From Myxococcota bacterium (GTDB taxonomy: Bacteria > Myxococcota_A > Polyangia > Polyangiales > Houyiibacteriaceae), in assembly GCA_039030515.1 (NCBI GenBank), contig JBCCEA010000012.1, forward strand, positions 39,546 to 103,545: 64,000 nt of DNA. The letters run 5' to 3'. The translations under genes were made by a program, and so were the position numbers. Under the pieces are notes generated by a model that searched no databases, was not told the DNA's origin, and saw only the letters and a list, made by a program, of their open reading frames with translations. Shown piece by piece: positions 39,574 through 62,724 of this stretch; positions within the stretch are counted from its first letter, which is position 1, and every line of letters begins with the position of its first letter.

Positions 39574-41526
39574 TTATTCGCTCAAATTAGATTCAAGTAT
39601 CGGTTCTACACATCCAAAGCCACGCGTTCGGACGTAGCTGATGTGTAAACCGCGGCAGCTGGAATTTTCTACGCAAGAGGTGCATCGCAATGGTTTCGTG
39701 AAGTAGTGGGAGTCGATATAGCGTTTTGTGAAACGAAATATCTCGGGACGTCCATCAGGGCGAAGCATACTTAGGTCGAGAAATTTCGACTCGAGTGTGG
39801 GCGCCTGTCCACCAATGCATCTCGGTATTCCAAATCGTGGGACATCGAGTCGAAACTTGGCGAAAAACTCTGGTAACTCCACGTCGAAGGCCCGAGAGTC
39901 TGTGGATCGCTCCCAAGTCGGCTGCTGAATTGCTAAACGAGTGGCCGTCCGTTCTGGAGCCAACAGCCAAGCTTCAGTTGCCTTCAGCAGTAAAACAACC
40001 ACTTCAAACGACGCGTCTAGCGCGAGCAGTCGCTCGGCTTGCTCGGGGTGGCGAGCGAGTACGCGTGTGAGCCTTTTTCCATCCAGCACTTCCCCCTCGA
40101 GCAGATCCTCAAGGCCTTCATAAGAGCCGAGCTCCAGGGAGACGTTAGCCAGACTGGGAAATCGGCGCATGGCAGATCGTGCATCCATCATGTCTTTGGC
40201 GACCACATGAAGCTGCGTTACCGAGGGGGACTGGGCAAGAGCCTCCGGGGTTTGATAGGAAACGGGACTAGGCTGTCCGGACAAGACACGAAGGCGCCGG
40301 CGACCCTCTTGAGCATCGGACGCGCCGAGGCTCACACTGCTGGTCGAAAGAGCCGAGCCCGCATTGGAGAACAACGCTGCATCAGTGATCGAGACCTCAT
40401 CCTTAGAAACCAAAGCGGTTGCGGGAGGAAATGAACCGACGGCCGCTCGGTATTCCTGCTCGGAGCTCTGACGTCGAGCCCTCCTCTCACTTGCCGGGTC
40501 TCCCCCGAACGCTTGATGATCGGCGACCTCCCAATCTACGTCGACTCGGAGACCTTCAAAGTCAGAGTCTGACAGTCGATTTAAGGTTTGCTCCAACGTG
40601 TCGCAAAGAGGCTCTAGATAGCAATAGCGACAGCGTGCTGGCTGTCTACAGTCTAGAAGTTCGCCAAAGTCAAAGAGTCGGTCGAACTCCTGTCGTCGAC
40701 CGCGTACTTCATCATTGAGCTTGTAGGGGTCCTGAATCAAATCTTCGAAACCCTCGCAATGTGCAGGCGGGAATCGGTTCAGCCAAAGGTGCATGTCCGG
40801 AAGACGTGCATAAGAAAAAGCTCGAAAGAGAGCGTCTTTAGCTTCGTCGAGATCGTAAAAGAGCGTATCCTTACCCTCGCGAAACGCTCTCCCGAAAGGG
40901 ATGATTTGAAGCAAATCGTACTCTCGAACGCCCATCCTCACGAACTTATCTATAATATCGGCGAGATAGCGAACGTTAGCTCGATTCACGACAACATCTA
41001 TATTGACTATGGGGCGTCCGTCTGAGAGCGCATTTTCAAGACCACGCACCTCTTCATCAAAAGCCCCTTTTACCCCGACCAGTGCATCGTGGATCTTCGC
41101 ATTTGGTCCGTGAATAGAGAAAGTGATTTCCGACAAACCTGCATCCAAACACCGACTCAAAAAAGGTCGATATCGGAACATTCTCCCATTGGTAACGGTT
41201 TGTACTTTTTCGTAGCCTGCCAATCGGCCCAAACGCACAAAATCAACGAAGTGCGGATGAATCGTCGGTTCTCCTCCGCTGAGAATCAGTCGCTCCGCAC
41301 CCTTTCGTCGACCATCGAGGATTTGTCGCTTCACATCAGCGACATCACGCATCTCACCGTCATGACTGTCGGAATCCAGGCAGAAAATGCAGCGATCGTT
41401 GCAGGCATAGGTCAGACGCACCCAGTTCCGCTTTTGATGCGCTGCCGCCTCGTGCGCTTCGGCAGTGCTCGGCTTCACGGCCGGATCCTGAGGAGCGTTC
41501 TGCCTTGCCGGGTCGGCTTGTTCCAT
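39574..41526 (-). CDS. Radical SAM protein, HxsC-like, with two Cx2Cx5C modules
   Basis: CNDRCIFC, LSGGEPT, TNG; CRYCYLEPLC and IPRC...CTSCVENSSCRG. Confidence 0.9.
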   Translation of the reverse strand: MEQADPARQNAPQDPAVKPSTAEAHEAAAHQKRNWVRLTYACNDRCIFCLDSDSHDGEMRDVADVKRQILDGRRKGAERLILSGGEPTIHPHFVDFVRLGRLAGYEKVQTVTNGRMFRYRPFLSRCLDAGLSEITFSIHGPNAKIHDALVGVKGAFDEEVRGLENALSDGRPIVNIDVVVNRANVRYLADIIDKFVRMGVREYDLLQIIPFGRAFREGKDTLFYDLDEAKDALFRAFSYARLPDMHLWLNRFPPAHCEGFEDLIQDPYKLNDEVRGRRQEFDRLFDFGELLDCRQPARCRYCYLEPLCDTLEQTLNRLSDSDFEGLRVDVDWEVADHQAFGGDPASERRARRQSSEQEYRAAVGSFPPATALVSKDEVSITDAALFSNAGSALSTSSVSLGASDAQEGRRRLRVLSGQPSPVSYQTPEALAQSPSVTQLHVVAKDMMDARSAMRRFPSLANVSLELGSYEGLEDLLEGEVLDGKRLTRVLARHPEQAERLLALDASFEVVVLLLKATEAWLLAPERTATRLAIQQPTWERSTDSRAFDVELPEFFAKFRLDVPRFGIPRCIGGQAPTLESKFLDLSMLRPDGRPEIFRFTKRYIDSHYFTKPLRCTSCVENSSCRGLHISYVRTRGFGCVEPILESNLSE

Positions 41527-41647
41527 AGTTCAAGCATAGCGAAAATCGTAGATGTTGCCCGGAATCAAAGCTCAGAAAAAAGGGGGCATCGAGTAGCGGG
41601 TCTACGTAGTCCAATTTGAAATCGTTCGCTCAGGGTGAGGGGAAACA

Positions 41648-43279
41648 CTGCAGCGTAGAAAATACAGACTGTGGACTGTTGGCGTGTCCGCACTAGTGGG
41701 CATGTCGTCGCTGGCGGGATCAGCAAGCTGCAGCGTAGGCGAACGCTCAAGCGTGGAGGTAGAAATCGACGCGCTATCTTCAGCGACGCGGCTCTTTGAG
41801 AGAACGGAGTTTCATGGCGTTTCTGACTCCGAGAGCGAACTGCTGATCTCTCCTGCCTGGACGACGGCCCTAACCGACCGACTCGGTTTCCAGTTCACGA
41901 CAAGAAACAGATTTCCATTCATCCTTGGTAACACGCCCCACAGCCTATCAAACGACAGCCTACCAAACGCCCAGTCGATTTACGTGCGGGCATTTCAAAA
42001 TGGAAGGTTTGGACCATGGCGTGCAGCCAAAACTAAATTCTTCGATGGTCAGCTCGGTGTGGCCAAAATCGACCTGGCCACACCGGCGAAAAGGTTTCAG
42101 TTCGGTCTGCAGCCGGAAACCGACATGGCGTACATCCGGGTCAGCAGCCATCGGCGCACGCACGACCGGAAGGAACCCGAAGAACTGGAGAGGCTGCAGC
42201 TCCCTTTGCGACAAGACCTCATCAACTTGGGCGTTCGTCCGAGAGATTCATGGAACGCCCGCGCCGCTCGATGCGGTACCGAGGATACGCTCAAGTCTCG
42301 AATCACGATCCATCACACGGCAACGCCAACCGCAGACCCCCCAGAGTCGCGCTTGAGGGCCATGCAGGCTTATCATCAGGACGTCTTGCAGTGGTGCGAT
42401 ATCGGCTACCATTTTATGATCTCTCTGGATGGAGTGATCTGGGCAGGGCGTCCAGTAGACGACCTAGGCGCTCACGTTGAGGGCAACAACCTTGAAAACA
42501 TCGGTATCGCTCTGATGGGATGCTTTCAAATTGAAGGTTGCAGCGACTGGACTCCCAATATTCCGAGCAAACCCATGCTGGACGCCGCAGTTGGACTGAT
42601 TCGTCATCTTTCAGAGCACTACGCTTTCGAAGTCACTATCGAGACCCTCTTGGGCCATCGCGATGTGGCTTCCTCCTCAACTGCGTGCCCTGGAGCACAT
42701 CTATATGCGCGACTCGATGAAATACGAGAGCGCTCCAAAAGCGCAACGCTCTCCCCACCGAAAGTGAACCTAAGCCACGTCGTCGATCAGCGACTCGATG
42801 CGGGACGGCGCTCGTTCATCGCCGTGCGCGAAGAACCATCGTCAGCGTTTGGGACCGGCGACGACGAAATTGACGCGCATTCGATTCCGCAGAATGGCGG
42901 CAGAACTGCCTCCTTCGAGCCGACATACCCAGATGGACTGAGTTCATCCGACGCAGGGGCCGTCGGGGGGGCGAAGACATCGAGCTGCTCGGTGACGACG
43001 CGCGCTCCTTTCTCGCTCATCGCGTTCATCATCGCGGCGATATCAGGCGCGACTGGCCGGCGATATCGCTGGAGAATTCCGGAACAAGTTCAGAACAAAC
43101 GCACTGCGATTCGCCGACGTGCAACCACAGCGCTATGCTGCTCGAGTGCCTGCTCCTATGCGTGTCTTGCTCATCCACCCTCCGACCAGCCTCGCACCAG
43201 ATTTCATCGATTATCCGTACTGGAGCGATCTGGGAACCGTGCAACTGGCCGCGTGCATCCGCCAGAGCCCGGAGATTGA
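41648..43279 (+). CDS. N-acetylmuramoyl-L-alanine amidase (Amidase_2/PGRP-like) lipoprotein
   Basis: ITIHHTA, WCDIGYHF, GAHV, NIGI, GHRD...TACPG. Probable CTG start at 41648 after GAGGGG gives a complete signal peptide ending SAS-C. Confidence 0.85.
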   Translation: MQRRKYRLWTVGVSALVGMSSLAGSASCSVGERSSVEVEIDALSSATRLFERTEFHGVSDSESELLISPAWTTALTDRLGFQFTTRNRFPFILGNTPHSLSNDSLPNAQSIYVRAFQNGRFGPWRAAKTKFFDGQLGVAKIDLATPAKRFQFGLQPETDMAYIRVSSHRRTHDRKEPEELERLQLPLRQDLINLGVRPRDSWNARAARCGTEDTLKSRITIHHTATPTADPPESRLRAMQAYHQDVLQWCDIGYHFMISLDGVIWAGRPVDDLGAHVEGNNLENIGIALMGCFQIEGCSDWTPNIPSKPMLDAAVGLIRHLSEHYAFEVTIETLLGHRDVASSSTACPGAHLYARLDEIRERSKSATLSPPKVNLSHVVDQRLDAGRRSFIAVREEPSSAFGTGDDEIDAHSIPQNGGRTASFEPTYPDGLSSSDAGAVGGAKTSSCSVTTRAPFSLIAFIIAAISGATGRRYRWRIPEQVQNKRTAIRRRATTALCCSSACSYACLAHPPSDQPRTRFHRLSVLERSGNRATGRVHPPEPGD

Positions 43280-45467
43280 GTTCACGCTCGTTCATAGTTT
43301 TGATCTCAGAAACTCAAATATTGAACGGCGCGGTGACGGACGCTGGCATCTTGGGGCACCGGTTGAAGAAGTGGTGCGGGCATCTCCAAGCGCTGACGTC
43401 ACCATCATCGCAGTGTCTCCATTTCACCGTCCCCCTGGACGCGACGACACGCTTGGGACGCTTATCGAAGGCTTGAAAAAGAAAACGTCGATGCTGTGGC
43501 TGGTCGATGCGTACCAGTCTGGACAGCACTACATCGAGAGCGATGATCTCCGTAAGGCCTACCCGGAAGCAGATATTTGGATCAAATATGAAGCTGAACG
43601 GACCACGATGAAGCGGCTCACGGAGGTCCTTTCTGGTAAGCGACCTCAGGGCGTTTTTCACGGCGAGCAACCCACCCTCGATATGCTGCCAAATCCGGCT
43701 TGGGATCTGGTGGATCTCGACGCACTCGACAGCTTTCATTCCCGAGTCGATCGAGCACTCGGCCGCTCAAGTTGGGCTTATCCGGTCGGAGGAAGAACGC
43801 TTCCTCTGGTCACCACTCGGGGTTGTCCCTTCCGCTGTGTTCACTGCAGCAGCAACCCCGATAGGCGAGCTGGGGAACCAAAAACGCAAAGGCGATACTC
43901 TAGAGAGCGGCTCTCCCAGTACTTGTCGGAGCTGGTGGAGGTGCACGGGGCGAAGCGATTCGCGATCCTAGACGAACTTATCAATGTGCACCCCCGACAC
44001 TTTGACAGCGTGCTCGAGCTTATCGAATCGCTTGACGTTCGCTTCGATGTGCCGAACGGCTTTAGAGCCGACTATCTGAAACCGAAACACTTCGCACGCA
44101 TGCGTGGCAGAACCTATTTCGCGAGTGTCAGTGCGGAAAGTGCCTCAAAAAGGGTGCTTGAGGACGTGGTGGACAAACAACTCGATCTTCGGGCCATCGA
44201 TCAAGCTGCCGAACATGCCTACCGAGCGGGAGTGCCGCTCATGATCCACTACATCATTGGGCTTCCAGGCGAAACTGGAGCGGAGGTCAATGAGACACTC
44301 AACTATGCCCTAGACTTGTGGGATCGGTTCCGAGCGTATCCCGCAGTTCAATTTGCAACACCTCTACCGGGAACCAGACTCGCTAAGATTCGAATAGCCA
44401 ATAAACTAGAACTCCATCCAGAACGTGATTGGGGGCCTCATTTCCAGAAGAACCCGTTGAGCAGCGATCAGCTGTCCACAGAAACGCTGCACGCTTTTCT
44501 GGACACCTTTCAAAAGCGACTTCGTGAAAGTAGTGGCGCAAAAAAACTGATCATGAATGTGACCTACATGTGCAATAATCATTGTAATTTTTGCGCAGTG
44601 GGCACCCGAACCCAAATCGACGGACATCCTACCCGCCAGAGAGAGTTTCTAGAGCACTACCGCCAAATGGGCGTAGACATGGTGGATTTCGACGGGGGTG
44701 AACCCTCCCTCAACCCTGAACTCGTCCCGCTGATTCGCTATGCAAAGCGGATCGGATACCGACGAATCCACGTTACGACGAATGGTCGTCTTTGCGCATA
44801 CGAGTCCTACGCCCAAAAGCTCGTAGAGTCGGGCATTACAAGCTTACTCTTCAGCGTGCACGGCCATGATCGTCGGACCCATGCACACCATGTGGGCGTA
44901 GCCGAGGCCTTCGATCAGACCTGTGAAGGGATACAAAACTGCGTCTCACTCAGCCCGCCAGAGGTAGATATGGGAATGAATATCACCCTGACAAAACACA
45001 ACTACACAAAAATGCAAGAGGTTGCTGAACTGAGTTGGAAACTCGGTCTTCGATGGCTCAACGTTCAGTTTCTTACTCCATTCGGACGCGCCACAAAGGA
45101 GTTGGCTCCCGATATGGATGGCGCCGCAGCGGAAACCATGAGACTCATCGATGTCTGGCATGAGCGAATGAAGTTGCAGGTCATCAATCTGCCGTTTTGT
45201 TTTATGCCAGGTTATGAGCAGTATGTAGAGGGTGATCTGAGTAAGCTCTCACGGCATATGCTCTTTGTGAACAATGAGTCCGTCAATCTATCGAAGTATC
45301 TGGCGGAACGTCGAACGAAAAAAGATGTCTGTGCGCGCTGTCCACACGCTTGCTTTTGCGGCGGGTTCTACGAGCTTGAAGACGTACCGGAACCTGAATG
45401 GATCGTGACCAAAGATTCTCTATTGAGACGGCCGGACGAAACGGCGATACCTGACCGACAGCGTTAG
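43158..45467 (+). CDS. Double radical SAM fusion: B12-binding-type radical SAM module plus HxsC-like radical SAM module
   Basis: MRVLLIHPP N-terminus and TRGCPFRCVHC; second motif CNNHCNFC, DGGEP, LPFC...CARCPHACFCGG. Confidence 0.88.
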   Translation: MRVLLIHPPTSLAPDFIDYPYWSDLGTVQLAACIRQSPEIEFTLVHSFDLRNSNIERRGDGRWHLGAPVEEVVRASPSADVTIIAVSPFHRPPGRDDTLGTLIEGLKKKTSMLWLVDAYQSGQHYIESDDLRKAYPEADIWIKYEAERTTMKRLTEVLSGKRPQGVFHGEQPTLDMLPNPAWDLVDLDALDSFHSRVDRALGRSSWAYPVGGRTLPLVTTRGCPFRCVHCSSNPDRRAGEPKTQRRYSRERLSQYLSELVEVHGAKRFAILDELINVHPRHFDSVLELIESLDVRFDVPNGFRADYLKPKHFARMRGRTYFASVSAESASKRVLEDVVDKQLDLRAIDQAAEHAYRAGVPLMIHYIIGLPGETGAEVNETLNYALDLWDRFRAYPAVQFATPLPGTRLAKIRIANKLELHPERDWGPHFQKNPLSSDQLSTETLHAFLDTFQKRLRESSGAKKLIMNVTYMCNNHCNFCAVGTRTQIDGHPTRQREFLEHYRQMGVDMVDFDGGEPSLNPELVPLIRYAKRIGYRRIHVTTNGRLCAYESYAQKLVESGITSLLFSVHGHDRRTHAHHVGVAEAFDQTCEGIQNCVSLSPPEVDMGMNITLTKHNYTKMQEVAELSWKLGLRWLNVQFLTPFGRATKELAPDMDGAAAETMRLIDVWHERMKLQVINLPFCFMPGYEQYVEGDLSKLSRHMLFVNNESVNLSKYLAERRTKKDVCARCPHACFCGGFYELEDVPEPEWIVTKDSLLRRPDETAIPDRQR

Positions 45468-45531
45468 GTGGCTGTACGAATCTAGAGTCGCAAAGATCGA
45501 CAACGCCCAGAATACTAGCAGAGCGCGAAGT

Positions 45532-46482
45532 CTACGGGACCGGCAGCACTTGGAGCCGGCGAGCGCCAACCGATGGCGATTCACCTTTAGCCGAGGCGAT
45601 TTCTACATCCCCGAATACATCCAAATAATCACGACGCATCCCGGGACAGCGCCTGCGATCATCACATTCCTCACACACTTGGGTGTGTGTATTTGGAGTC
45701 AACTTGGCGTCGCTTAGATCGAACATGCCATCAGGCGAAAGCACCCGTACCCCCTCCTCGGCGGGATTTAGGTGAATATGCTGCAAGGACGGCCCCAATA
45801 GGCAAATAGGCAGGTGAAGTGAACGAATCTTGATTTCGGGCACCTGCTTCAGTGCTGTCTCGACAAAGGGAATGACGTCGATCATTTTAGGCAAAGATTC
45901 TAGGTTGTGCCGGTTTCCGTCGGTTAGGGAGACAAACCAAAGCCAGGCCTCTCGCATGCCGAAGGAGTGAATCCAGGCGAGTGCTTCGGGCAGATGTCGA
46001 TAAGTATCTTCTTTAAGAATCACTTCTGCAACGCACTCTAGTCGAGTCGATGCACACGAAGCTTTCATCTGAACTAGATTTTCTAGAGCTTGGACCAGTA
46101 GGGGAAACGTGCCTTCGCGTCGAACCAACCGCTCGTACTCCGTAGGTCGGTGCGTGTGAATCGAAACGTGAAATCGAGTCACGCCAGCCTCGACCAGGCG
46201 CGCCACATTCGCAGCCTCCGCAAGCAATAGCCCGTTAGTTTGCAGCTTGATGTCGCAGAAACCGAGCTTTCTTGCTTCCCGAATCAGCGGTAGTAGATCG
46301 GACCGTATCGAGGGCTCGCCACCGGTCAGGGCCACCCGCTCGTAGCCTTCACGTCTGGCCTGCCTCATCGCATGGACCACCTGACGCGCGGTGAGGGCTC
46401 GCTCGCGCATCTCTTTTGTAATCGTGCAGTAATCGCACCAGAGATTGCAATCGTATCCCAAGACGATATCAAGCAGAGACAT
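45532..46482 (-). CDS. Radical SAM protein, HxsC-like
   Basis: CNLWCDYC, LTGGEP, QTNG, LPIC...CEECDDRRRCPG; start at MSLLDIV. Confidence 0.9.
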   Translation of the reverse strand: MSLLDIVLGYDCNLWCDYCTITKEMRERALTARQVVHAMRQARREGYERVALTGGEPSIRSDLLPLIREARKLGFCDIKLQTNGLLLAEAANVARLVEAGVTRFHVSIHTHRPTEYERLVRREGTFPLLVQALENLVQMKASCASTRLECVAEVILKEDTYRHLPEALAWIHSFGMREAWLWFVSLTDGNRHNLESLPKMIDVIPFVETALKQVPEIKIRSLHLPICLLGPSLQHIHLNPAEEGVRVLSPDGMFDLSDAKLTPNTHTQVCEECDDRRRCPGMRRDYLDVFGDVEIASAKGESPSVGARRLQVLPVP

Positions 46483-46549
46483 TGCGTGCTCGCGCCTTTC
46501 GGTTCGACAGAGGTACGTTCGACCCTCTATACGAAGATTGCTGCATAGT

Positions 46550-47623
46550 GTGAAAGAAACGCCCTCCAACGTCCATACTCCTATCCGTCTGACGTATCAC
46601 TGTACCCAGGCCTGTATGTTCTGCGGCATTAGTGAAAAAAAATCAGAGGAATCGAGTCAGCCAAAGGGCTTGATGGAGCAACTCGCCGAACTTCGTCAAC
46701 ATACAGATGTGGTGACGCTCTCCGGAGGCGAGCCAACTTTGTCGCCATATCTGCTCGAATGCGTGCGCGAGGCATATCGACTCGATTTTCGCCGGATCGC
46801 GATCCAATCGAATGGCTCATTTGAAAACGCGGAAGAGCCATGTTCTGATCAAAATGACGTTCAAAGGGCAAAGCTCATCGCCCTTCGCGACGCAGGGATG
46901 ACCGAAGTACAGGTTTCGATTCACTCGATGAACACAGACTGCCAGGCCTACCTCACTGGACGAAAACAGAGCTCTGACTATGCTTTTCATCTGCTTTCTA
47001 CCGCACGTCGCTTGGCGATACCTGCATCTGTAAACACCGTAATCACTCGTTCCAACTATCGTGAGCTCGCCCTCTTACCGGCTCCCCTGGCAGGAGCTGA
47101 AGTGAAGGCATGGCATCTCGTTTGGCCTCAGGTCATTGGGCGAGCTCGCATCAATTTTGCTCGAATTGTACCTACGCTCTCGATTGCCGTTCCGTACATG
47201 CTTCACGCTGTTGCCAAGGCAGAGTCCAGAAGTCTGAAAGCGTCGATCACGGGCGTTCCGCATTGCCTTCTCGGCCCGTATGTCCGCATCGCGACAGAGG
47301 CCGCAGCTGGCCCCACTCGCTTTGCAACGAAATGCAGCCGGTGTTCTCTTCGGAGCCGCTGCAGCGGTCTTGACCCTCGCTACATGGCCCGTTTTGGCGA
47401 TGGAGAACTGCGACCTCAACGTCTACCGCCTTCAGACAACGCGTTCGAGTCGACAAGTTCGGAGAAGCAGATGGGTACGATGAGCACCCCCCCAACAGGA
47501 TGGGGTGCTCTGTTCGAGTTAGAGCCCTCCGAAACAGATCCGAACGCTGAAGAAAAAGGGCGCGAGGTACGACTAGCTCTGCCTGTCGTCCGCGAAGTGA
47601 GTCCGAAAGAAAAAAAAGACTAG
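46550..47623 (+). CDS. Radical SAM protein, HxsC-like
   Basis: CTQACMFC, LSGGEPT, QSNG, VPHC...CSRCSLRSRCSG; GTG start inferred. Confidence 0.85.
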   Translation: MKETPSNVHTPIRLTYHCTQACMFCGISEKKSEESSQPKGLMEQLAELRQHTDVVTLSGGEPTLSPYLLECVREAYRLDFRRIAIQSNGSFENAEEPCSDQNDVQRAKLIALRDAGMTEVQVSIHSMNTDCQAYLTGRKQSSDYAFHLLSTARRLAIPASVNTVITRSNYRELALLPAPLAGAEVKAWHLVWPQVIGRARINFARIVPTLSIAVPYMLHAVAKAESRSLKASITGVPHCLLGPYVRIATEAAAGPTRFATKCSRCSLRSRCSGLDPRYMARFGDGELRPQRLPPSDNAFESTSSEKQMGTMSTPPTGWGALFELEPSETDPNAEEKGREVRLALPVVREVSPKEKKD

Positions 47624-47798
47624 TGGGCCAAGGAACAATCTGGTCGTGCCTTCCGTTATGCGATGGGCTTGCGGTGCTCATTACGACAAAAACCTGAACA
47701 AGCACCGAACAAACCGCACTAGCTGCGGCACCAAACCTGGACGAGTCTTGGGCAACCCGTACTAGGTACGGCGGCAAATCTGCAGAGCCGCCTAGGGT

Positions 47799-47854
47799 GG
47801 TCCCGCGGATCTTGGTCACCCGCGGCTCTTAGTCACCCGCGGCTCTCGGTCACC
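47799..47854. repeat. About 17-bp imperfect tandem repeat (about 3.3 copies)
   Basis: ggtcccgcggatctt / ggtcacccgcggctctt / agtcacccgcggctctc / ggtcacc. Confidence 0.8.
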
Positions 47855-47974
47855 AGGGAGGCCGGGGACGACGCGCATCAGACGGCGGCAACCGTACGAT
47901 TTGGACCGCAACGAGCATGAACGCGACGCGCGTGGTATGGGTTCTCAGTACACTTCTTGTTTCGGGATTGATCG

Positions 47975-49162
47975 ATGGACCGTACGTTTCTGCACCACCT
48001 ACGTAGCGAAACCCAAGACCTTCGAGACTCAGGCCTCTTCAAGGACGAACGAGTCATCGAGTCGCCACAGCAGTCAGCGATCCGAGTACAGGGCGGGCAG
48101 GAAGTACTCAATTTCTGCGCAAACAACTACCTCGGGTTGTCCAATCACCCCGCCCTGATCGAAAGCGCAAAAAGAGCGCTCGACGAGTTCGGATTTGGCA
48201 TGAGCTCAGTACGGTTCATCTGCGGGACTCAAAGCGTGCATAAAGAGCTCGAGGCGCGGATCAGCCGATTCCTCGGCACTGAAGATACGATTCTCTACTC
48301 TTCTTGCTTCGACGCCAATGGGGGGCTTTTCGAAACGCTGCTGGGCCGGGAAGACGCCGTGATCAGTGATGCGCTCAACCACGCATCGATCATCGACGGT
48401 ATTCGGCTTTGCAAGGCGCAGCGCTACCGATTCGAAAGCAGCAACATGGTCGATCTGCGGTCCAAATTGGAGGAAGCCAAAGGCGCTCGAGTGAAGCTCA
48501 TCGCGACAGACGGGGTGTTTTCCATGGACGGCGTTCTCGCCGACCTCAAATCGATTTGCGACCTAGCAAGCGAGTATGGTGCCCTGGTTATGGTGGATGA
48601 CAGCCATGCGGTTGGTTTTATGGGAGAAGACGGGCGCGGCACACACGAGTACTGCGCGGTGATGGATCGGGTCGACATCATCACTGGAACCCTCGGCAAA
48701 GCACTCGGTGGGGCTTCGGGAGGTTACACCAGCGGACGCCATGAGGTGATCGAATGGCTCCGACAGCGGTCGCGGCCCTACTTATTCAGCAACACCTTGG
48801 CGCCCGTGATCGCAAAGACCTCGATTACGGCTCTTGACCTAATCGAGGGAGACTCCTGCCTGCGCGACCGGTTGAAAGTCAACGCTGCTCATTTCCGCAG
48901 CGGCATGGAAGCCGCCGGGTTTCAACTCTCGGGGGCCGACCACCCGATCATTCCAGTCATGCTCGGCGATGCGAAGGTTGCAGCGCGTATGGCTTCTGCA
49001 TTGCTTGAAATGGGAATTTACGTGACAGGTTTCAGCTATCCCGTCGTGCCCAAAGGCCAGGCGCGCATCCGAGTACAAATATCGGCGGCTCACGAATCGG
49101 CTCAAATCACCCGAGCTATCGACGCCTTTACCAATATCGGTAGACAGATGGGTGTGCTTTGA
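47975..49162 (+). CDS. kbl: Glycine C-acetyltransferase (2-amino-3-ketobutyrate CoA ligase)
   Basis: [43 protein letters not shown]. Confidence 0.97.
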
Positions 49163-50211
49163 TGAAAGCCCTAGTCAAGAGTCATCCCCGTGAGGGCATT
49201 TGGCTTTCGGAAGAAGAGGTTCCAAGCCCAGGACCGAACGATTTACTCATCCGCATAAGAAAAACAGCGATTTGCGGAACGGACATCCACATCTTCAACT
49301 GGGATGACTGGGCTCAAAAAACCATTCCAGTCCCTATGATCACGGGCCATGAGTTCGTGGGAGATGTCGTCGCTGTCGGAAGCCATGTTCAAGGTTTTGA
49401 GGTGGGCCAAAGGGTCTCTGGCGAAGGTCACGTTACTTGCGGGTACTGTCGCAACTGTCGCGCAGGACGCCGTCATCTATGCAGAAACACGGTAGGGATC
49501 GGAGTGAATCGCACGGGAGCCTTTGCGGAGTATCTGTGCCTGCCAGCCGTCAATGCGTTTAAGATCCCCCCGAGCATTCCCGATTCCATCGCTTCCATCC
49601 TGGACCCATTGGGCAATGCAACCCACGCAGCGCTTTCGTTCGATCTCGTTGGGGAGGACGTGCTCATCACTGGCGCCGGGCCCATCGGTTTGATGGCCGT
49701 GGCCATCTGCAGACATGTGGGAGCCCGAAACGTCGTGATCACCGACATCAATCCGTATCGACTTGAGTTGGCCACAAAAATGGGCGCCACGATGGCCATC
49801 GACGTACGCCATGAATCGATAGCCGACGCTCAGGCATCCATCGGGATGAGCGAGGGCTTCGACGTCGGATTGGAGATGAGCGGCAATCCCCATGGGCTCC
49901 GGGATACCCTCGACAATCTAAACCATGGCGGGAGACTGGCGATACTGGGCATTCCTCCGTCTGAAACTACGATCGACTGGAATCAGGTCGTGTTCAAAGG
50001 ACTCACCTTGAAAGGGATCTACGGTCGGGAAATGTTTGAGACCTGGTATAAGATGCTGAGTATGCTTCAGAGCGGACTCGACATCTCACCGATACTCACC
50101 CATGAGCTACCGATCTCTGATTACGCAGACGGCTTTCACATTATGAAATCCGGCCTTTGCGGTAAGGTCGTCCTGAATTGGACTGAGGAACATCAACCAG
50201 AAGAACTCTGA
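49162..50211 (+). CDS. tdh: L-threonine 3-dehydrogenase
   Basis: ICGTD, GHE, CGYCRNC...C zinc site, [22 protein letters not shown] coupling to kbl. Confidence 0.97.
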
Positions 50212-50238
50212 GCGAAGCGCCAGCGGTTCCGGAACCTT

Positions 50239-51216
50239 TCAAACCGGTACCGGAACAAACTCCTCCCAGCCGTGTCGGCTCAGGTAGTTACTCCACACTC
50301 CTTCACAGACTGAATCATATTTGCACTCGGCACATTCCGCCCTCTTTTTTCTCAGAGCATCATCGAGATCGCTGCGTCTTAATTGAACAAGATCGCTATC
50401 GGGACCGCATTGACTTTGGGGGTCTATCTCGGTCAGAAGCGCTATGTCGTGCCCTCCAGAGACAGACTCAAAATGGGTATAGCTCTCGACGAACCCACGG
50501 TTGAAATCAGGCAAACCCTCCGTAGTACAAAGCGGAATATCGACAAAAAACGCCATCGCATCGGGGAAAGCGTTGAGGAATACAGCTGCTTCTTTTGCGA
50601 TCTCAGTATAGCGTGGGAAGATTTTTTCAAAATGCGTATTGGCGCGACCATTGGCCTGCATCACGTTGAACACCACCTGATCCACTCCCAAGTCGCGCAA
50701 GAAGACGTAGATCGAGGCTAAATGCGGCAAGTTGCGCTTGGTCACTACGGTGCTGGTATGCAGCTGTAGTCCAAAACGTTTTAGCGAGGCGATGTTGCGT
50801 ATTCCATTCGTCGTCTGTTCGAACGCACCTGGAGTTCGGACAAGGCTGTCGTGAAGCCGCGACTCATGACCATGAATGCTGACGTAAAATCGATTGATGC
50901 CGGACTTAACCAGCATTTGCGCGTAACGCCGTTGACTGAGCATTCGGGCGTTTGTCATCACGCTGATATTGGCTATGCCTGCTCCCTTAGCCCAGCTGGC
51001 CCATACGGGCAGCCTCCGATTCAGCGTCGGCTCTCCACTGGTAAAGCAGATTTCTTCTGCGCCCGCCTTATTCTCGAGGATCCAACGCACCGTCGAGTCG
51101 TCGGTCTGAGAATTCGTTTCGTATCGGGCGTCTCTATCCTCCTCCATACAGAACAGGCAGTTGTTGTTGCACACGGCTCCGGTCAGTACGTGAACTCGCT
51201 CCTGCCGCGACTTCAT
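50239..51216 (-). CDS. hxsC: His-Xaa-Ser system radical SAM protein, HxsC-like
   Basis: CNNNCLFC, TSGEPT, IPLC...CAECKYDSVCEG; directly downstream of the HxS peptide gene. Confidence 0.8.
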   Translation of the reverse strand: MKSRQERVHVLTGAVCNNNCLFCMEEDRDARYETNSQTDDSTVRWILENKAGAEEICFTSGEPTLNRRLPVWASWAKGAGIANISVMTNARMLSQRRYAQMLVKSGINRFYVSIHGHESRLHDSLVRTPGAFEQTTNGIRNIASLKRFGLQLHTSTVVTKRNLPHLASIYVFLRDLGVDQVVFNVMQANGRANTHFEKIFPRYTEIAKEAAVFLNAFPDAMAFFVDIPLCTTEGLPDFNRGFVESYTHFESVSGGHDIALLTEIDPQSQCGPDSDLVQLRRSDLDDALRKKRAECAECKYDSVCEGVWSNYLSRHGWEEFVPVPV

Positions 51217-51297
51217 CCGATTCCGGGGCGAGTCCTCCCTCTCAGGTTTGATGGAGGTTTGCTGAGAAGAAGCGTCCTGCAGAACGTCGGTCAGGAC

Positions 51298-51618
51298 CTA
51301 CCAGCTTCCATGACTACCGTGGGAACCGTGGCTGCCGTGGGAACCGTGGCTACCGTGGGAACCGTGGCTGCCGTGGGAACCGTGGCTGCCGTGGGAACCG
51401 TGGCTGCCGTGGGAACCGTGGCTGCCGTGGGAACCGTGGCTGCAGTGCTGGGCGCCCCTTTGAGCATCGAAAGGAGCAAGTCCTCCATGTTCGTCTGCAT
51501 TGGCCAGGGCCCGGTCAGAGATTTCCTGCTGATCAGGACTCAAAGAAACTCCAGCACCCTTTTGAAAGGTCGGTAGCTCTTCTTCTTCGGTCGATTTCTC
51601 TTTCTCAGCCATAGGCAT
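51298..51618 (-). CDS. hxsA: His-Xaa-Ser repeat precursor peptide: acidic leader then HC(SHG)15SW
   Basis: 16 consecutive H-x-S triads; lies between HxsB and HxsC-like radical SAM genes. Confidence 0.9.
   Translation of the reverse strand: MPMAEKEKSTEEEELPTFQKGAGVSLSPDQQEISDRALANADEHGGLAPFDAQRGAQHCSHGSHGSHGSHGSHGSHGSHGSHGSHGSHGSHGSHGSHGSHGSHGSW
51307..51441 (-). repeat. Coding tandem repeat, 9-bp period with 18-bp higher-order unit
   Basis: AGC CAC GGT TCC CAC GGC units; 135 nt = 15 SHG. Confidence 0.95.
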
Positions 51619-51773
51619 TCACTCACAAAATAAATGGAGTCCGTTGGTTCGAACGAGCCAGCGCACGTCAGCGCCTCTGACTACAAAGATAAGCTAGCAG
51701 GTTAGTCAGGAAACTGCTCCGGAAAATCTTCGAGCGCTCCTTCACTGCGCAGTGTCTGCAAGCAACTCGCGAT

Positions 51774-53282
51774 CTACGAGGAGCTCGGATTCGTCTCAGC
51801 AGGATGAAGAAAATGGTCGCGAGATCGATTGGTCGTCCATCGCTCCAATACAGCCAGGGTCTCGGCATCAGAGTCACCTAGCTTCTCAAATAGGTAGTCC
51901 TGAATCCCCTTATGTACCTGGCAGAGCGTGCTCTCTCGCATCCGTCCAAACAACGTCCCTTGAGTCTTGTAGCTATGAACGGGAGGTATGCCGCAGTAAG
52001 GAACGTAGACGCAGTTGACGCAATCCGGCTGCCCTTCCAACTGCGAGGCGATGACCACCGCGCGCACCGTCTCGTGACCTACGACTTCCCGATAAGAGGA
52101 GGTCGAAACATTACCGAGAGCAAACGTATCGTCTCCGCTGTGGTGCAGCATGCGCCCTTCGTCACAAGTAAAGATTCGACCGTCGTAGTTGTAAGCGAGT
52201 TGCCCTATTCCCGCGCCCGACGGGCTGCGGATATCCAAAAAGTTGGGATCTTCACCCGACAAGATCTTGGTCAGGAAGATCGCGGCATAGCGCTCGAGGA
52301 TCTCCACTCCTTGCAGATTCAACTCGATCATGTAGTCGACCGCAGAGCGATAAAACTCGAGATACTCAGACCTTGGGTATTCGAATAGATGGGCGGTTCG
52401 AGATGCCCAGCCGAAGGGATCGAGAGGTCTCAAAAAGAGAGCCCTACATCCCAAGTCGACGTACGTATCGACCAAATCTTTCCAGCGGCTCAGTAGAGGT
52501 CGCGTGGTCGTGACCAGCGCCTCCACATGGTACAGTGTGGGATCGAGGTTTAGTTCCGAGTACTTCTCGTTGATACGCCTGATCCAGCCAGATGCTACTT
52601 CGTGAGAGGAACCGCCCGCAAGCTTCCGCTGCTTGTCATGGATATCCTGCGGCCCGTCGATACTCGTGCAGATTTGTACTCGATGTTCGAGCAGCCAAGA
52701 CAGCTTCTCTTCGGTCATCAATGCGAGATTGCTGACCATTGTGAACTCAAGCTCTTTACCGAGACGGCGACTCTTATCTAGAGCGTAGTGCACCACGTGC
52801 TTGAGGACCTCCCAGTTGACGAGAGGTTCGCCGCCCTGAAACTCGATGGTCACGTAGGGATTGGTGGTCTGCAGCAGGAAATCCACGGTTTTTTCTGCAA
52901 CCTCAGCCGTCATATCGGTCTGTACCGCATCCATATTTGCCCTTGAGGCGTGGCAATAGGCGCAAGTTTCGTTGCAGCGCAGAGTAAGAACTAGAACGTG
53001 AAGGTTTGGTCCGGAATGAATAAATCTCTTGCGCCGACGAATAGACGCCGCCGCCGCCGGTACGTCAACATGGTCACGCAGAAAATTCTTGGCCCGGAGC
53101 CGCTCAAAAAGCGAGCTGCCTTCTTCCAACTCTCCTCGAGTAAAGGCCTCGAACTCGTCGGATTCGAGCAGAATCCAGCCTCCGTCGATTCCGGTCAGCA
53201 GCACGCGTTCCCCGATTTGCCGAAAACGGAAAAACGCAGCGTGCTTTGTGGTGGCGCCGCTCGGCAAGCGTGGACTAGTCAC
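51774..53282 (-). CDS. hxsB: His-Xaa-Ser system radical SAM/SPASM maturase HxsB
   Basis: CNETCAYC, IEFQGGEP, 'DIRSPSGAGIGQLAYNYDG.IFTCDEGRM', CVNCVYVPYCG. Confidence 0.9.
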   Translation of the reverse strand: MTSPRLPSGATTKHAAFFRFRQIGERVLLTGIDGGWILLESDEFEAFTRGELEEGSSLFERLRAKNFLRDHVDVPAAAASIRRRKRFIHSGPNLHVLVLTLRCNETCAYCHASRANMDAVQTDMTAEVAEKTVDFLLQTTNPYVTIEFQGGEPLVNWEVLKHVVHYALDKSRRLGKELEFTMVSNLALMTEEKLSWLLEHRVQICTSIDGPQDIHDKQRKLAGGSSHEVASGWIRRINEKYSELNLDPTLYHVEALVTTTRPLLSRWKDLVDTYVDLGCRALFLRPLDPFGWASRTAHLFEYPRSEYLEFYRSAVDYMIELNLQGVEILERYAAIFLTKILSGEDPNFLDIRSPSGAGIGQLAYNYDGRIFTCDEGRMLHHSGDDTFALGNVSTSSYREVVGHETVRAVVIASQLEGQPDCVNCVYVPYCGIPPVHSYKTQGTLFGRMRESTLCQVHKGIQDYLFEKLGDSDAETLAVLERWTTNRSRDHFLHPAETNPSSS

Positions 53283-53563
53283 CGCAGGCCCTCGGAGTCT
53301 GACGCGTTCAGTTCATCGGACATCCCCCGGCTTCGGGCTCGAATGGTCAATCCCAGGGCAAAATTGGAGACCTCTCCAGCAACGCGTCGTTCCTTTTTGG
53401 AAGGAGGCCCATCTTCGTCTCCATCTTGCTCGAAGAGACACACCTCCCAGTAATCAGGAGACTCCTTGCGGGTAGTCGCGACGTAGGGTGCGTACACCTG
53501 GAGCGCCTCGTCTACGCACGCGCCGGGATAGAGATCGCGACGAAAACGAATTCGTACGCTCAC
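53279..53563 (-). CDS. HxsD-like small protein
   Basis: GTGA overlaps with both neighbours; 'FRRDLY...VDEALQVY...AGEVSNFAL' parallels the adjacent HxsD pattern. Confidence 0.7.
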   Translation of the reverse strand: MSVRIRFRRDLYPGACVDEALQVYAPYVATTRKESPDYWEVCLFEQDGDEDGPPSKKERRVAGEVSNFALGLTIRARSRGMSDELNASDSEGLR

Positions 53564-54054
53564 GACGGTTCTTCCTTTGATTTCTTGGCGTACTTCTCTT
53601 CCCAACTCATCGCGATCCCGAGAGGGTCTTCGAAAGGCTCTTCCGAAAAGTCAAAGTCTTCAAGTTCGTCGAGTGTCGGTGGGCCCATCGCGCCAGCGAT
53701 CGCCTGCATGGTAATCGATTCAAGCGTAGCTCGATTTTCCTCGGTAATCCGAAGTCTGAAGGCACAGGCCATCAACTCGTTGGCAAACTCTCCGACGAGA
53801 GATCGTAGGGCGTTCAGTTCGGGCGCGGACGCCGCATTCTTCAGCGTCAGATGGACCCGCACGCTCGTTTCCTTTGGGCGGTCCAGAAATACAAACGCTC
53901 GGTCGATAAAAGTAAAGGAAGCTCCAAATATCGCATCGAGCGGGAAGAGCTCGGTTTGGATCTCCAATGCGATCCCCTGCGCGCCGTGAAGCTCTTGAAG
54001 CTGGACTAGACCAGCGGGCAAACCGCCGACCGCCTGAGACGCATGTGCACTCAC
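53560..54054 (-). CDS. hxsD: His-Xaa-Ser system protein HxsD
   Basis: 'ELFPLDAIFGASFTFIDRAFVFLD...GEFANELM..AFRLRI.EENRA' plus position upstream of hxsB. Confidence 0.8.
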   Translation of the reverse strand: MSAHASQAVGGLPAGLVQLQELHGAQGIALEIQTELFPLDAIFGASFTFIDRAFVFLDRPKETSVRVHLTLKNAASAPELNALRSLVGEFANELMACAFRLRITEENRATLESITMQAIAGAMGPPTLDELEDFDFSEEPFEDPLGIAMSWEEKYAKKSKEEPS

Positions 54055-54100
54055 GTTAACTCCTTAGATGGAAAGGACTGCTCCCGTCAACCCGAGCCAT

Positions 54101-55939
54101 CTACGACAGCTTCGAGGCCATCTTCTGCTCACCTCGCCGGCGGTACCACAGCATCCATTGGTTGCTGCCAAGGAGATTCACCGGCGACTCCTCGACGAGT
54201 TCGAACTGTGGGTGTCGGGCGAGCAGTGCCTTCACCTCGGCCGCACCGTCGTTGCGGAAATGCTCCAAACCTGCGGCACTAGATTCCGCTCTATCGGTTT
54301 GAGATCGGCTTCGCGCCAGTCCGAAGGCGACATTGTCTACGATCGCAAGCGAACCACCGTCGCGTAAACAATGCGCACAGGCGGCAATGACAAAGGCGGG
54401 ATCTTGAAGGTGATTCCAGCTTCTCAAAATGAGGATATGGTCAAAGGGTTGAGAGGATGTTTCTCGTTGCCGAAACCATGCTTCAGCAGTGCCCGCAACG
54501 AGATGGGCCCACGGCCAGGCCTTCCTTTGGCGCTCCACCAAGTCTTCGTCCGGATCGATTCCGGTATAGCAAAGCTGTGCAGCGGCGGCCGAGGCACCAA
54601 ACGCCTCCGCGTAGCGACCCTCTCCGAATCCTAAATCGAGCACGTCGCCGCGAAGCGTTCGGATTCGACGGGCCACGTCTTCATCTGATGGCCCAAACAC
54701 GTCAACGGCCCGCGGAACCCATAGCCCAGAGCACTCTGTCTGATGGACGCAACCTTCACAGCGCGGAGATCGATCGAGCTTTCGAAGGTCTGCCGCAAAA
54801 TCATCGACCGCCGCCTTACGAGAAACGTCGAGGTATACTTGGCCTCTTTGTAGCTTCGTTCGTTCGATCTCCGCATCGCTGAAGTCACGCGTATCCGCTC
54901 GAAAGAGCGCAACGCGCCCCCGATGTTCGACGAGCAAGTCGCGTCCACGATCCCAGGGCGAAATCCCAAGCGCTCCGTCGCGCAGCGGGCAGTCGACCTC
55001 ACCCCATTCGGCGAATCGCTGAAAGCGGTAGTTAAACGAATTGCTCCGGGGGCGCTCGAGACTCGGCACGAGACGCTCTCCGCCGGCGCGAAGCTCGATG
55101 TATCCGCGATACAACCCGGGACAACCACCCTGATGGACGCAGCCCTCACACTGGGGGAGATGGGCCTTATTGCGATCGTCTACCGGAAAAAAATCCGATT
55201 CGCCTACCTCTACCATGCTCCGGAAGCCGTGGGTCTTTAGGTCGTCGTAGCGGTCTTCAAGCCCCTTGAGATGACAAAGCGGAAACGCGCCGTGAACCAA
55301 CCGGCCCTCCGAATCGTATTTCGATTCACCGTACTCGATCGCATCGCGCACGCGCGCTGCGGCATCGAAGACATCGGGAGTGAGTGCACGAAACAGAAGT
55401 TCTCCACCACCCTTTGGCTCTACCATCGAAAACTTCAAACGGATGCGCTCATAGGGCATCACCAAATCCACCAACTCGCGAAGGTGATCGACATTCTGCC
55501 GAGTCACCACACAGTTGACCGTCACGTCGATAGGCCGACCGGCGAGTACCGAAAGTGCACCACAGGACTGCTCAAACGCATCAGCCCGAACCAGGCGATT
55601 GTGTACCCGCGCCGATCCCCCGTGTAGTGAGAGATAAACATACTTGAGGCCCAAAGACTGCAATCGATCGACCACTTCTGGGTAGCTCAACAGTCGACCA
55701 TTCGTGATCAATCCAAAATCCATCTTCAGCGCGGCAACCTCAGCGGCCCAGTGCATCAGTTCAGATCGGATGGTCGGCTCCCCTCCTGAAAGCACCACCA
55801 TCGTATGACCAAGCTCTTTGGCCCTACGAATCTTCCGCGACACTTCAGCTGCCTCCGCATCGATGGAGCGCAGCTCGAGCGTGTGACAGAACGTGCAGTG
55901 CTCGTTGCATCCGTAACCGACTTTGATCATGGCTTTCAT
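54101..55939 (-). CDS. HxsC-like radical SAM fused to a class I SAM-dependent methyltransferase
   Basis: CNEHCTFC, LSGGEPT, FPLC, two CEGCVHQ..C.G motifs; C-terminal VLDLGFGEG...YTGID...WNHL. Start could also be 55948 or 55957. Confidence 0.88.
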   Translation of the reverse strand: MKAMIKVGYGCNEHCTFCHTLELRSIDAEAAEVSRKIRRAKELGHTMVVLSGGEPTIRSELMHWAAEVAALKMDFGLITNGRLLSYPEVVDRLQSLGLKYVYLSLHGGSARVHNRLVRADAFEQSCGALSVLAGRPIDVTVNCVVTRQNVDHLRELVDLVMPYERIRLKFSMVEPKGGGELLFRALTPDVFDAAARVRDAIEYGESKYDSEGRLVHGAFPLCHLKGLEDRYDDLKTHGFRSMVEVGESDFFPVDDRNKAHLPQCEGCVHQGGCPGLYRGYIELRAGGERLVPSLERPRSNSFNYRFQRFAEWGEVDCPLRDGALGISPWDRGRDLLVEHRGRVALFRADTRDFSDAEIERTKLQRGQVYLDVSRKAAVDDFAADLRKLDRSPRCEGCVHQTECSGLWVPRAVDVFGPSDEDVARRIRTLRGDVLDLGFGEGRYAEAFGASAAAAQLCYTGIDPDEDLVERQRKAWPWAHLVAGTAEAWFRQRETSSQPFDHILILRSWNHLQDPAFVIAACAHCLRDGGSLAIVDNVAFGLARSRSQTDRAESSAAGLEHFRNDGAAEVKALLARHPQFELVEESPVNLLGSNQWMLWYRRRGEQKMASKLS

Positions 55940-62500: not shown

Positions 62501-62724
62501 GTGAGGCAGCCAATTCTTGGTTCAGTTGGCCGCAGCTTGCGGCGCGCTCGAGTCGCGCGTTCTTGACCGACTCGAACGTGCTTCACGTCGTCACCGCAGA
62601 AGGAAGCACACCGACGGTAGAGGCACACGAGATGCCGGGCTGGAGTTGTCAGTCACTTCAAGCAACTGACGATCGAGCATTCTGTGCGATGGGCCAAAGC
62701 GGAGTGCTTGCAATCGATCTGTAA
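59595..62724 (+). pseudogene. Secreted beta-propeller lipoprotein, frameshifted by a 118-bp tandem duplication (possibly an assembly artefact)
   Basis: Lipobox VSA-C; 'EADII', 'MDEFDGYFRV', 'VRFDG.RAY.ITF..TDPLF.IDL', 'GELEIPG'. Removing one copy fuses ORFs 59595..61292 and 60988..62724 into 1003 aa. Confidence 0.8.
61170..61405 (+). repeat. Exact 118-bp tandem duplication
   Basis: 61170..61287 matches 61288..61405 (tttgacctcgcgg...gattggtgga). Confidence 0.95.

Follow-up and report, generated by a model that had tools for sequence, protein, structure and literature searches.

Gene content of the locus

A 64,000-nucleotide stretch of a Myxococcota genome (G000; 4.08 Mb, 85% complete), comprising positions 39546–103545 of contig C12 and referred to here as the window, contains a locus related to the His-Xaa-Ser (Hxs) system. 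The DNA occurs in marine metagenomes: four DNA runs from a single study were listed, one of which is possibly the source, and no RNA run was among them. Based on the open reading frame (ORF) list and the Pfam model PF04055, which all of the genes pass, positions 39574–55957 encode seven radical S-adenosylmethionine (SAM) enzymes with eight intact domains (HxsB, HxsC4 and the enzymes designated R1 to R5), together with two HxsD-type proteins and one repeat-bearing precursor peptide (Table 1). A sequence-only reading of this DNA had listed a precursor with 16 HxS triads, HxsB, two HxsD-type genes and six further radical SAM genes, and all of these are indeed present. We slightly favor the view, with the mechanism proposed below taken as a whole, that the genes constitute a pathway for a peptide that is made by the ribosome and modified after translation (RiPP), i.e., a type-4, multi-enzyme form of the His-Xaa-Ser system. 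Judged by the gene sequences, it is very probable that the radical SAM genes and the precursor share one pathway.

The precursor has 106 residues, of which 57 form an acidic leader and 49 the core HCS(HGS)15W, with 16 His-x-Ser triads. The ORF stops at the Trp after the repeats, the core includes neither Lys nor Arg, and the peptide has neither a hydrophobic segment nor a C-terminal domain. Over 11 residues the hydropathy of the leader reaches at most 0.19, and with a calculated pI of 6.1 the precursor as a whole is acidic. The calculated monoisotopic mass is 10,840.8 Da for the precursor with its Met and 4,747.9 Da for the core. A six-frame search found no other run of HxS triads in the genome, and the precursor has no match to TIGR03979 (HxsA). 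In contigs of the sequencing run that may be the source, depth is even over 38–57 kb (18.5–20.7), which, together with the similar layout in the genome G149, where gene set and order are nearly those of the window, led us to reject a chimeric assembly. These contigs break inside the repeat (51346–51414), and the repeat number thus lacks independent confirmation.

The results from searches against the NCBIfam/TIGRFAM models indicate that HxsB, HxsA4, HxsC4 and the HxsD-like protein exceed their cut-offs, with HxsD falling below its own (E value 4.9e-10); a gene of this type sits upstream of hxsB in many loci. The two HxsD-type proteins share no similarity by BLASTP. Within the minus-strand run R5-hxsD-hxsD-like-hxsB-hxsA4-hxsC4, the gaps are 46, -7, -4, 155 and 81 bases, hxsD-like overlapping hxsD by 7 nt and hxsB by 4 nt; the left half is broken up by kbl, tdh and an amidase gene. 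The best match of HxsB in the PDB is 5wgg (E value 1e-21). The motif CX3CX2C is conserved in all eight window domains and a GGEP-like motif in seven of them, the first of the two separate PF04055 stretches in R2 being of the B12 type. Each radical SAM gene of the window includes a C-terminal CX2CX5C cluster, which is present in two copies in R1 and R5. Canonical HxsC (TIGR03977; cut-off 267.9) was not detected at E ≤ 1e-40 in this 85% complete genome, the best scores being 95.7 within the window and 134.4 outside of it.

Table 1. Positions of the genes discussed (window coordinates unless a contig or locus is named)
Feature	Position	Strand	Support
Precursor HxsA4	51298..51618	-	NF038313 88.4 bits > 55
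HxsB, radical SAM/SPASM-type maturase	51774..53282	-	TIGR03978 543.6 > 370
HxsD-like small protein	53279..53566	-	NF038315 50.7 > 41
Divergent HxsD	53560..54054	-	TIGR03976 39.6 bits, cut-off 50
HxsC4, HxsC-like radical SAM	50239..51216	-	NF038332 561.6 > 500
R5, HxsC-like radical SAM with C-terminal class I methyltransferase domain	54101..55957	-	PF04055; PF08242/PF13649/PF08241 over cut-off
R1, HxsC-like radical SAM with degenerate second barrel (apparent)	39574..41526	-	PF04055
R2, B12-type radical SAM domain fused to HxsC-like domain	43119..45467 (start probably 43158)	+	PF04055, twice
R3, HxsC-like radical SAM	45532..46569 (start probably 46482)	-	PF04055
R4, divergent HxsC-like radical SAM	46445..47623 (start probably 46550)	+	PF04055
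R6, HxsC-like radical SAM	G000:C47:7013-8281 (L085:7013-8281)	-	
R7, HxsC-like enzyme, 549 aa, C-terminal extension	G000:C33 (L083:14694-16343)		
C8 enzyme, 657 aa, two HxsC-like domains	L084:8007-9980		
aKG-HExxH protein	G000:C33:16325-17503 (L083:6326-7504)	+	TIGR04267 102.3 > 40; HExxH motif present
Tat-signal protein, no known family	32980..33720	+	RRSFL and hydrophobic stretch
Secreted Cys-rich protein, MopE-type repeats	38264..39484	+	PF11617 41.8 > 27
Amidase	41684-43279	+	inside the span, passenger
kbl	47975-49162		inside the span, passenger
tdh	49159-50211		inside the span, passenger

Distribution in the phylum

The same 161 genomes from the phylum, G000 among them, were searched for every part, using E value cut-offs that we chose from gaps in the scores, with 6–21 candidates scored per genome. 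The 61 genomes with a match to R6, an HxsC-like enzyme encoded outside the window, define the variant set, and R6 itself is therefore not an independent count. HxsB is found in 62 genomes, including 60 of the 61 variant genomes; the other two, G109 and G119, are the only two in which canonical HxsC occurs. Matches to R1 (60 genomes), R2 (42), R3 (25) and R5 (25) all fall inside the variant set. The exceptions to complete co-occurrence are G048 (90% complete), which has no R1 match, and G126 (91% complete, 230 contigs), which has no HxsB match. The repeat pattern was found in 68 genomes, including all 61 of the variant set, although it is leaky, as WSN codes also for Thr, Arg, Cys and Trp; of the seven matches outside the set, four can be seen to be repeats without Ser, while the HxsA4 match is absent in G141, weak in G097 and true in G152. 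HxsC4 was detected in 24 genomes (E ≤ 1e-50; nine over the model cut-off), all in the variant set, and with only 24 of 61 it was rejected as an obligate partner; more generally, HxsC4, R3, R4 and R5 are each missing from over half of the variant genomes. Judged by these matches, the distribution establishes a near-obligate set of HxsB, R1, R6 and the repeat peptide, with HxsC4 optional and the remaining parts lineage-specific add-ons. The idea that the extra radical SAM genes belong with hxsA and hxsB is thereby borne out, and no R1, R2, R3 or R5 match was found in a genome outside the variant set, so that the refuting condition named in the sequence-only reading did not arise; for R4 the relatives are too few to say the same.

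The number of triads ranges from 8 to about 50 across loci. The same pattern count as in G000 (12 matches, corresponding to 15 HGS here) recurs in 19 of the 61 genomes, these being per-genome counts of repeats that assemble badly. One locus in G040 (L044:8380-9240) holds two tandem precursors with 23 and 18 triads, and a precursor in G116 (L071:6586-7257) has about 50.

Similar expansions in other myxobacteria had been anticipated and do occur, in the 61 of 161 genomes just described, with genes that are usually scattered. In the closed genome G012, hxsB lies at 1.74 Mb, R1 at 1.25, R6 at 4.91, the precursor at 4.87 and R2 at 5.14, and megabase distances are found in the closed genome G042 as well, the genes still occurring together. 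The 16-kb locus is not the whole pathway: the Tat-signal gene at 32980 and four genes on contigs C8, C33 and C47 lie outside of it. The sequence-only reading had missed the Tat-signal protein, three radical SAM genes and an alpha-ketoglutarate-dependent (aKG) HExxH hydroxylase. Since the expansion is common in the phylum and usually scattered, the locus is only a partial gathering. Whole families carry the system (f17 14/14, f26 5/5, f25 9/10), and in the families of mixed presence the tallies are the same for HxsB, R1 and R6 (f1 1/10, f8 1/2, f20 3/5, f25 9/10, f27 1/2, f30 1/3). The HxsB and R1 trees mostly group the genomes by family, and 33 of 42 loci related to HxsC4 belong to NCBI phylum Myxococcota.

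This pattern bears on whether the system defends against phages. In the main text of Li et al. (Nat Commun 2026; PMC13128918), the E. coli HXS system is reported to block phage DNA entry; its HxsA combines a signal peptide and a peptidoglycan-binding domain with five basic HxS repeats, to which DNA binding is ascribed, and a +8 Da change (+C/-4H) on HxsA maps to SHRSS, unmodified controls not having been recovered. The remark of the sequence-only reading that it knew of no characterized product for the canonical system is thus out of date. By analogy, the matured peptide would be carried to the periplasm by the Tat protein, in place of the signal and wall-binding domain that HxsA itself has, and would slow phage DNA entry there, and the extra enzymes would diversify the effector. 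Such a function would be compatible with the chemistry that we propose; moreover, HxsB, the HxsD-type genes and the HxS repeats are common to this sole characterized member (PMC13128918), the exported partner is conserved, and the add-on enzymes vary by lineage in an arms-race-like manner. However, the core lacks Lys and Arg, the peptide is acidic, and both the signal peptide and the wall-binding domain are missing; the genes, which are often dispersed and whose trees mostly track the family, are present in whole families, the neighbors in the window appear from their translations to be of a housekeeping type, and R1 relatives were found in neither viral contigs nor plasmids. Mobile defense cassettes are not known for such family-wide, family-tracking inheritance. 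PADLOC returned only weak viperin-type matches and one PDC-M51A match, and no Hxs model. The neutral core, the lack of export and anchor domains, the family-wide presence, the dispersed genes and the family-tracking trees together favor a vertically kept role, and we regard an anti-phage function as unlikely.

The additional radical SAM enzymes

Among the matches shown, R1 to R5 pass no NCBIfam cut-off, the best match being HxsC4 or HxsC for R1, R2, R4 and R5, and MoaA for R3. The core has already been named by NCBIfam (HxsA4, HxsC4, HxsD-like), and in this respect the suggestion of an undescribed system is out of date. Of 7999 scored candidates, 1452 are related to R1 at E ≤ 1e-40, and the 120 listed bear generic names throughout. 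Its model (predicted local distance difference test, pLDDT, 87.4) is a radical SAM barrel with tied similarity to SkfB (Z 20.1), viperin (20.0) and BlsE (19.9). On predicted models, residues 415–650 look like a ninth, degenerate barrel, which lacks CX3CX2C and has its own CX2CX5C (TM score 0.63–0.70). Based on the clustering of 281 radical SAM domains from 102 loci and the window, the R6 group is usually found directly after R1, while in G000 it is on a separate contig. A complex prediction from alignments of R1 (20–645) with R6 (1–320) scored 0.00 twice (mark 0.32), which is informative neither way.

The best PDB match of the R2 alignment is AprD4 (6fd2), followed by TokK, TsrM and CysS. PF02310 was detected in the N-terminal part of two of 11 orthologues (best E value 7.3e-5) and is absent from the protein of the window, making a cobalamin-binding domain in R2 doubtful; a single-sequence fold (pLDDT 34) was unusable. 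In six genomes R2 is split into two genes, and an R3 match adjoins R2 in 15 of the 24 other genomes that have one. The identification of R3 as MoaA was rejected, as it scores 84 bits against a cut-off of 284 and groups with HxsC in the trees. R5 contains a methyltransferase motif I at residue 439. The added methylation chemistry of the sequence-only reading is inferred solely from domain assignments. R4 was found at E ≤ 1e-30 in G000 only (1/161). Its relatives, full-length in L002 and L004 (37–38% identity) and partial in L001, L049 and L062, all belong to Hxs loci; resting on these five, R4 appears to be the weakest-linked gene, although we consider it likely that it belongs to the shared pathway.

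With R6, R7 and the C8 enzyme, whose four domains keep the cysteines and SAM motifs, G000 encodes 10 radical SAM genes with 12 intact-motif domains, of which 10 are HxsC-like, the other two being HxsB and the first domain of R2. In the trees, R1, the second domain of R2, R3, R4, R5, R6, HxsC4, R7, both C8 domains and canonical HxsC fall in one branch, while the first R2 domain groups with B12-type enzymes. Four trees place the extra domains with HxsC. Support for the HxsC-like branch is 0.85 in FastTree (104 rows); with 48 rows and the LG+C20 model, the approximate likelihood-ratio test (SH-aLRT) gives 96, and a second run against 22 other radical SAM rows gives 97/91. The individual orthogroups have support of 98–100. 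Taken together, the sequence trees demonstrate that these paralogues probably descend from a common origin with canonical HxsC.

Genes resembling NifH and nitrogenase component 1 adjoin HxsC4-like genes in L011, L014, L015, L017, L018, L019, L021 and L034; tblastn found none in G000.

Two accessory modules

The Tat (twin-arginine translocation)-signal protein family was found by clustering neighbors other than radical SAM genes; among the first 82 Hxs loci, 14 besides this one encode a homologue, and the gene is often directly upstream of hxsD. The RR pair is invariant in 13 of 13 aligned sequences. The match to PF10518 is weak (16.4, cut-off 22.7), and this model is listed for four of 27 relatives. 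The protein occurs in 37 of the 161 genomes, 36 of them in the variant set, and in the 37th, G152, the gene stands beside a true HxsA4 (L103, C27:1517-2488), which is either a remnant or due to a missing contig. A TatC-like ORF is present on C59, based on motif only, and the ESM Atlas gave no lead for the Tat-signal protein (best 0.77).

The aKG-HExxH protein encoded on C33 matches ChlH (8s5f; E value 5.9e-5). It is found in 33 genomes, all in the variant set and 32 of them Tat-positive, and its gene often adjoins R1. In several loci R6 is followed by a long prepilin-peptidase-like gene, for which PF01478 is over the cut-off in one of four tested and weak in the other three; its alignment had no match in the PDB. 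This gene is present in nine of 10 variant genomes devoid of Tat and HExxH (10 of 24 such genomes) and in none of 10 Tat-positive genomes (10 of 36), the genomes having been chosen by us. The leaders follow the same division. In the Tat-negative type (nine precursors, eight genomes), [FY]LxxEEG is followed by a hydrophobic stretch, with a best 11-residue hydropathy of 1.47–2.07; the 13 Tat-positive leaders lack that Gly (G128 reads EEE) and reach 0.19–1.31. In this comparison G014 was dropped for Ns, G126 is cut by a contig end, and G003 fits neither type. We take the [FY]LxxEEG leaders to resemble those of Flp prepilins. The precursor leader of G003 (L075:8913-9368) has a twin-arginine-like motif, RRNFL; as this genome lacks the peptidase as well as the Tat/HExxH module, the motif might indicate a third export route. 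In the HxsB tree the Tat/HExxH type forms two separate clades. In the genomes compared, these gene contents and leaders establish two predicted accessory modules that are mutually exclusive, Tat plus HExxH versus the prepilin-peptidase-like protein, with G000 belonging to the Tat/HExxH type and having a soluble leader.

Neighboring genes

Homologues of the amidase, of a DedA/VTT gene and of NpdG were found in none of 102 loci, and these genes were rejected as parts of the system, as were kbl, found in one locus only, about 10 kb from hxsB, and tdh, with two 26% paralogues only. The amidase, encoded between R1 and R2, is an Amidase_2 (peptidoglycan amidase/recognition) protein; canonical HxsA binds peptidoglycan. 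The MopE-type protein encoded at 38264 is a possible associate: similar proteins occur near the core in eight loci, but the repeat is common and chance may account for this. A scan for promoters and terminators gave 2 and 15 sites, compared with 8.4 and 17.5 in shuffled sequences, i.e., no signal.

Elsewhere in the window, two overlapping plus-strand ORFs at 59595-62724 encode parts of a single secreted lipoprotein resembling a beta-propeller, in which one stretch (FDLADRDAPKNL...) is duplicated, a likely frameshift or assembly duplication. The contigs of G000 also contain short GC-rich repeat arrays (L084:4837-5527 and L085:10839-11300; translated 'HRTRSG'/'PYPVRF'), possibly a repeated extragenic element, and a gene for a VgrG-like protein (L085:13776-16868, plus strand; named from its translation) with an N-terminal tandem repeat of 20 residues.

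Proposed pathway

The pathway is known from its genes alone, and from these we infer its chemistry and function. Most of the enzymes probably act directly on the precursor. Its acidic leader would dock on HxsB/HxsD, and HxsB, with R1 and R6, would form an oxidative cross-link between His and Ser of each triad and so close a ring of three residues, with a loss of 2 Da for each link; one carbon might be gained at the same time, in line with the +C/-4H of E. coli HxsA. Arithmetically, although this is no evidence, +C/-4H equals one methylation and three two-electron oxidations. Whether a His-Ser ring is the main link is close to an even question, which we would answer slightly in the negative. 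The HExxH enzyme might then beta-hydroxylate the ringed His, as ChlH does, or remove the leader oxidatively, in the manner of the tail cutting by PflC/PosC. The methyltransferase domain of R5 and the B12-type domain of R2 would provide methyl or other tailoring. Finally, the Tat protein may bind the rigid, His-rich product and take it out of the cytoplasm to the cell envelope, where the product would serve a lineage-wide role, for which metal binding is the simplest guess; this piggy-back export is put forward tentatively, as a possibility that is somewhat less than probable.

Several observations weigh against this pathway. Related genomes are not independent, and the weak matches counted for R3 and R5 might represent paralogues; moreover, G152 (98% complete) has a precursor and Tat gene with no match to HxsB, R1 or R6. 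The branch of HxsC-like enzymes has ultrafast bootstrap support of only 59 under LG+G4 (48 rows), the outgroups are few (two MoaA, eight AhbD-like, six from G000, HxsB, and two PapB-like), and the group was drawn after the first tree. The database gene call of the Tat protein begins after the RR motif, four Tat-positive variant genomes have no HExxH match, G003 has neither exit module, and G000 itself has a short Flp-type peptidase-like ORF on C54 (motif only). With the models of known cyclophane synthases, HxsB falls far short of the cut-offs (YhhB 59.1, cut-off 445; AmcB 54.1, cut-off 425). In a homopolymeric core composed of His, Gly, Ser, one Cys and one Trp, 12 or more radical SAM domains would find few distinct sites, and the proteins of solved structure that come nearest to R1 and R2 in sequence, BlsE, AprD4, viperin and MoaA, act on nucleosides or sugars rather than on peptides.

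The last two points, few sites per three-residue repeat and solved relatives that act on small molecules, give rise to two further alternatives. Most of the HxsC paralogues could build or tailor a nucleoside-, sugar- or cofactor-like molecule that is joined to, or cut from, the HGS units, the peptide serving as a scaffold or multi-copy source as in PQQ and mycofactocin. Identical repeats of variable number would fit such a role, as would the housekeeping-like inheritance and the nitrogenase-like genes beside HxsC4-like genes in several loci. In E. coli, however, the modified repeats are reported to remain on the protein, with each repeat needed (main text of PMC13128918), and no conserved peptidase, glycosyltransferase or nucleotidyltransferase recurs beside Tat/HExxH-type loci among the top clusters examined; we consider this alternative quite unlikely. 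Alternatively, HxsB and one or two HxsC paralogues might be catalytic, and the others duplicates, scaffolds or decaying copies. The patchy presence of HxsC4, R3, R4 and R5, the truncated relatives of R4, and the degenerate paralogues without CX3CX2C in other loci would be consistent with such redundancy. Nevertheless, 12 of 12 domains keep the cysteines and SAM motifs, the orthogroups are old, as their support indicates, and the listed strain differences (40 listed of 534) are mostly silent (R2 14/22, R5 8/8), which makes redundancy improbable.

We thus retain the multi-enzyme RiPP pathway. In its boldest form, which is rather unlikely, a lineage-wide, non-defense pathway of Myxococcota-type bacteria would use a radiation of at least 10 HxsC enzymes to convert (His-Gly-Ser)n into a rigid polymer with many rings as well as hydroxyl and methyl groups. 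The polymer would leave by either of two interchangeable exits, namely prepilin-type cleavage of a membrane-bound leader or, in G000, an aKG-HExxH oxidase with a dedicated Tat carrier; this would be a new RiPP class with new radical SAM chemistry, and the E. coli system its stripped-down offshoot.

For the bond formed by HxsB/HxsC on HxS repeats, PMC13128918 gives the +8 Da change only, and the soluble 10.8-kDa precursor, its 4.7-kDa core of identical triads, and a minimal set of HxsB, the two HxsD proteins, R1 and R6 make the nature of this bond testable. Although 61 of the 161 sampled phylum members carry the system, the two enzymes that are most constant in it have generic names or none, and cluster detection based on neighborhood alone undercounts it. 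The swap between peptidase and HExxH/Tat is a clue to product release and export. New here are the obligate set of HxsB, R1, R6 and the repeat, the optional HxsC4, the Tat partner, and the exclusion between peptidase and Tat/HExxH. No paper on an expanded or type-4 Hxs form was found in the open-licence PMC and bioRxiv literature, and neither 'Myxococc' nor 'HxsA4' occurs in the main text of PMC13128918.

Comparison with known systems

Triceptides are three-residue cyclophanes formed by radical SAM/SPASM enzymes on the motif aromatic-X-X. The present system resembles triceptides in having this motif (16 His-x-Ser), a SPASM-type maturase, and a co-occurring TIGR04267 hydroxylase (33 of 61 variant genomes), often beside R1. 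It differs in that HxsB is far below the AmcB, YhhB and DynA cut-offs, the HExxH protein is free-standing, and the core is a 16-fold tandem repeat. As described in PMC12636437, the His or Asp that aKG-HExxH enzymes hydroxylate is part of a cyclophane installed beforehand, and PflC/PosC additionally cut the backbone. No cross-link in any Hxs system has been reported in the literature found, and HxsB and HxsC are given as annotated but uncharacterized in PMC9062424.

The first catalytic domain of R2 aligns with the cobalamin-dependent radical SAM methylases TokK, TsrM and CysS and with the dehydratase AprD4. Unlike those methylases, R2 has AprD4 as its best match, is fused to an HxsC-like domain, and has PF02310 in only two of 11 orthologues.

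The core is a member of the NCBIfam type-4 set, as HxsA4, HxsC4 and HxsD-like are all over the cut-offs of these name-only models, whereas R1 to R6 and the Tat protein pass none among the matches shown. HxsC4, labeled rare in its model name, is present in 24 of 61 variant genomes, while the unnamed R1 and R6 are the constant partners.

The canonical HXS system (hxsD-hxsB-hxsC-hxsA, TIGR03976-03979) was reportedly first predicted by Haft and Basu in 2011. The main text of PMC13128918 gives more than 99.8% of HXS systems as four-gene systems and 99.7% as occurring in Pseudomonadota; HxsB, HxsC and HxsD are necessary for the cleavage of HxsA, and HxsC binds HxsD. The system in G000 is like the canonical one in its HxsB, which exceeds the model cut-off, in the HxsD-type genes upstream of hxsB, in a target with HxS repeats, and in radical SAM enzymes of the HxsC family that bear a Cys cluster near the C terminus. 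In contrast to it, there are 10 HxsC-like domains instead of one and no canonical HxsC, and methyltransferase, B12-type, HExxH and Tat components are additional. Where canonical HxsA has five basic repeats, the precursor carries 16 neutral HGS triads, and it lacks both the signal peptide and the peptidoglycan-binding domain. Likewise, the order D-B-C-A is replaced by R5-D-Dlike-B-A-C4 with further genes.

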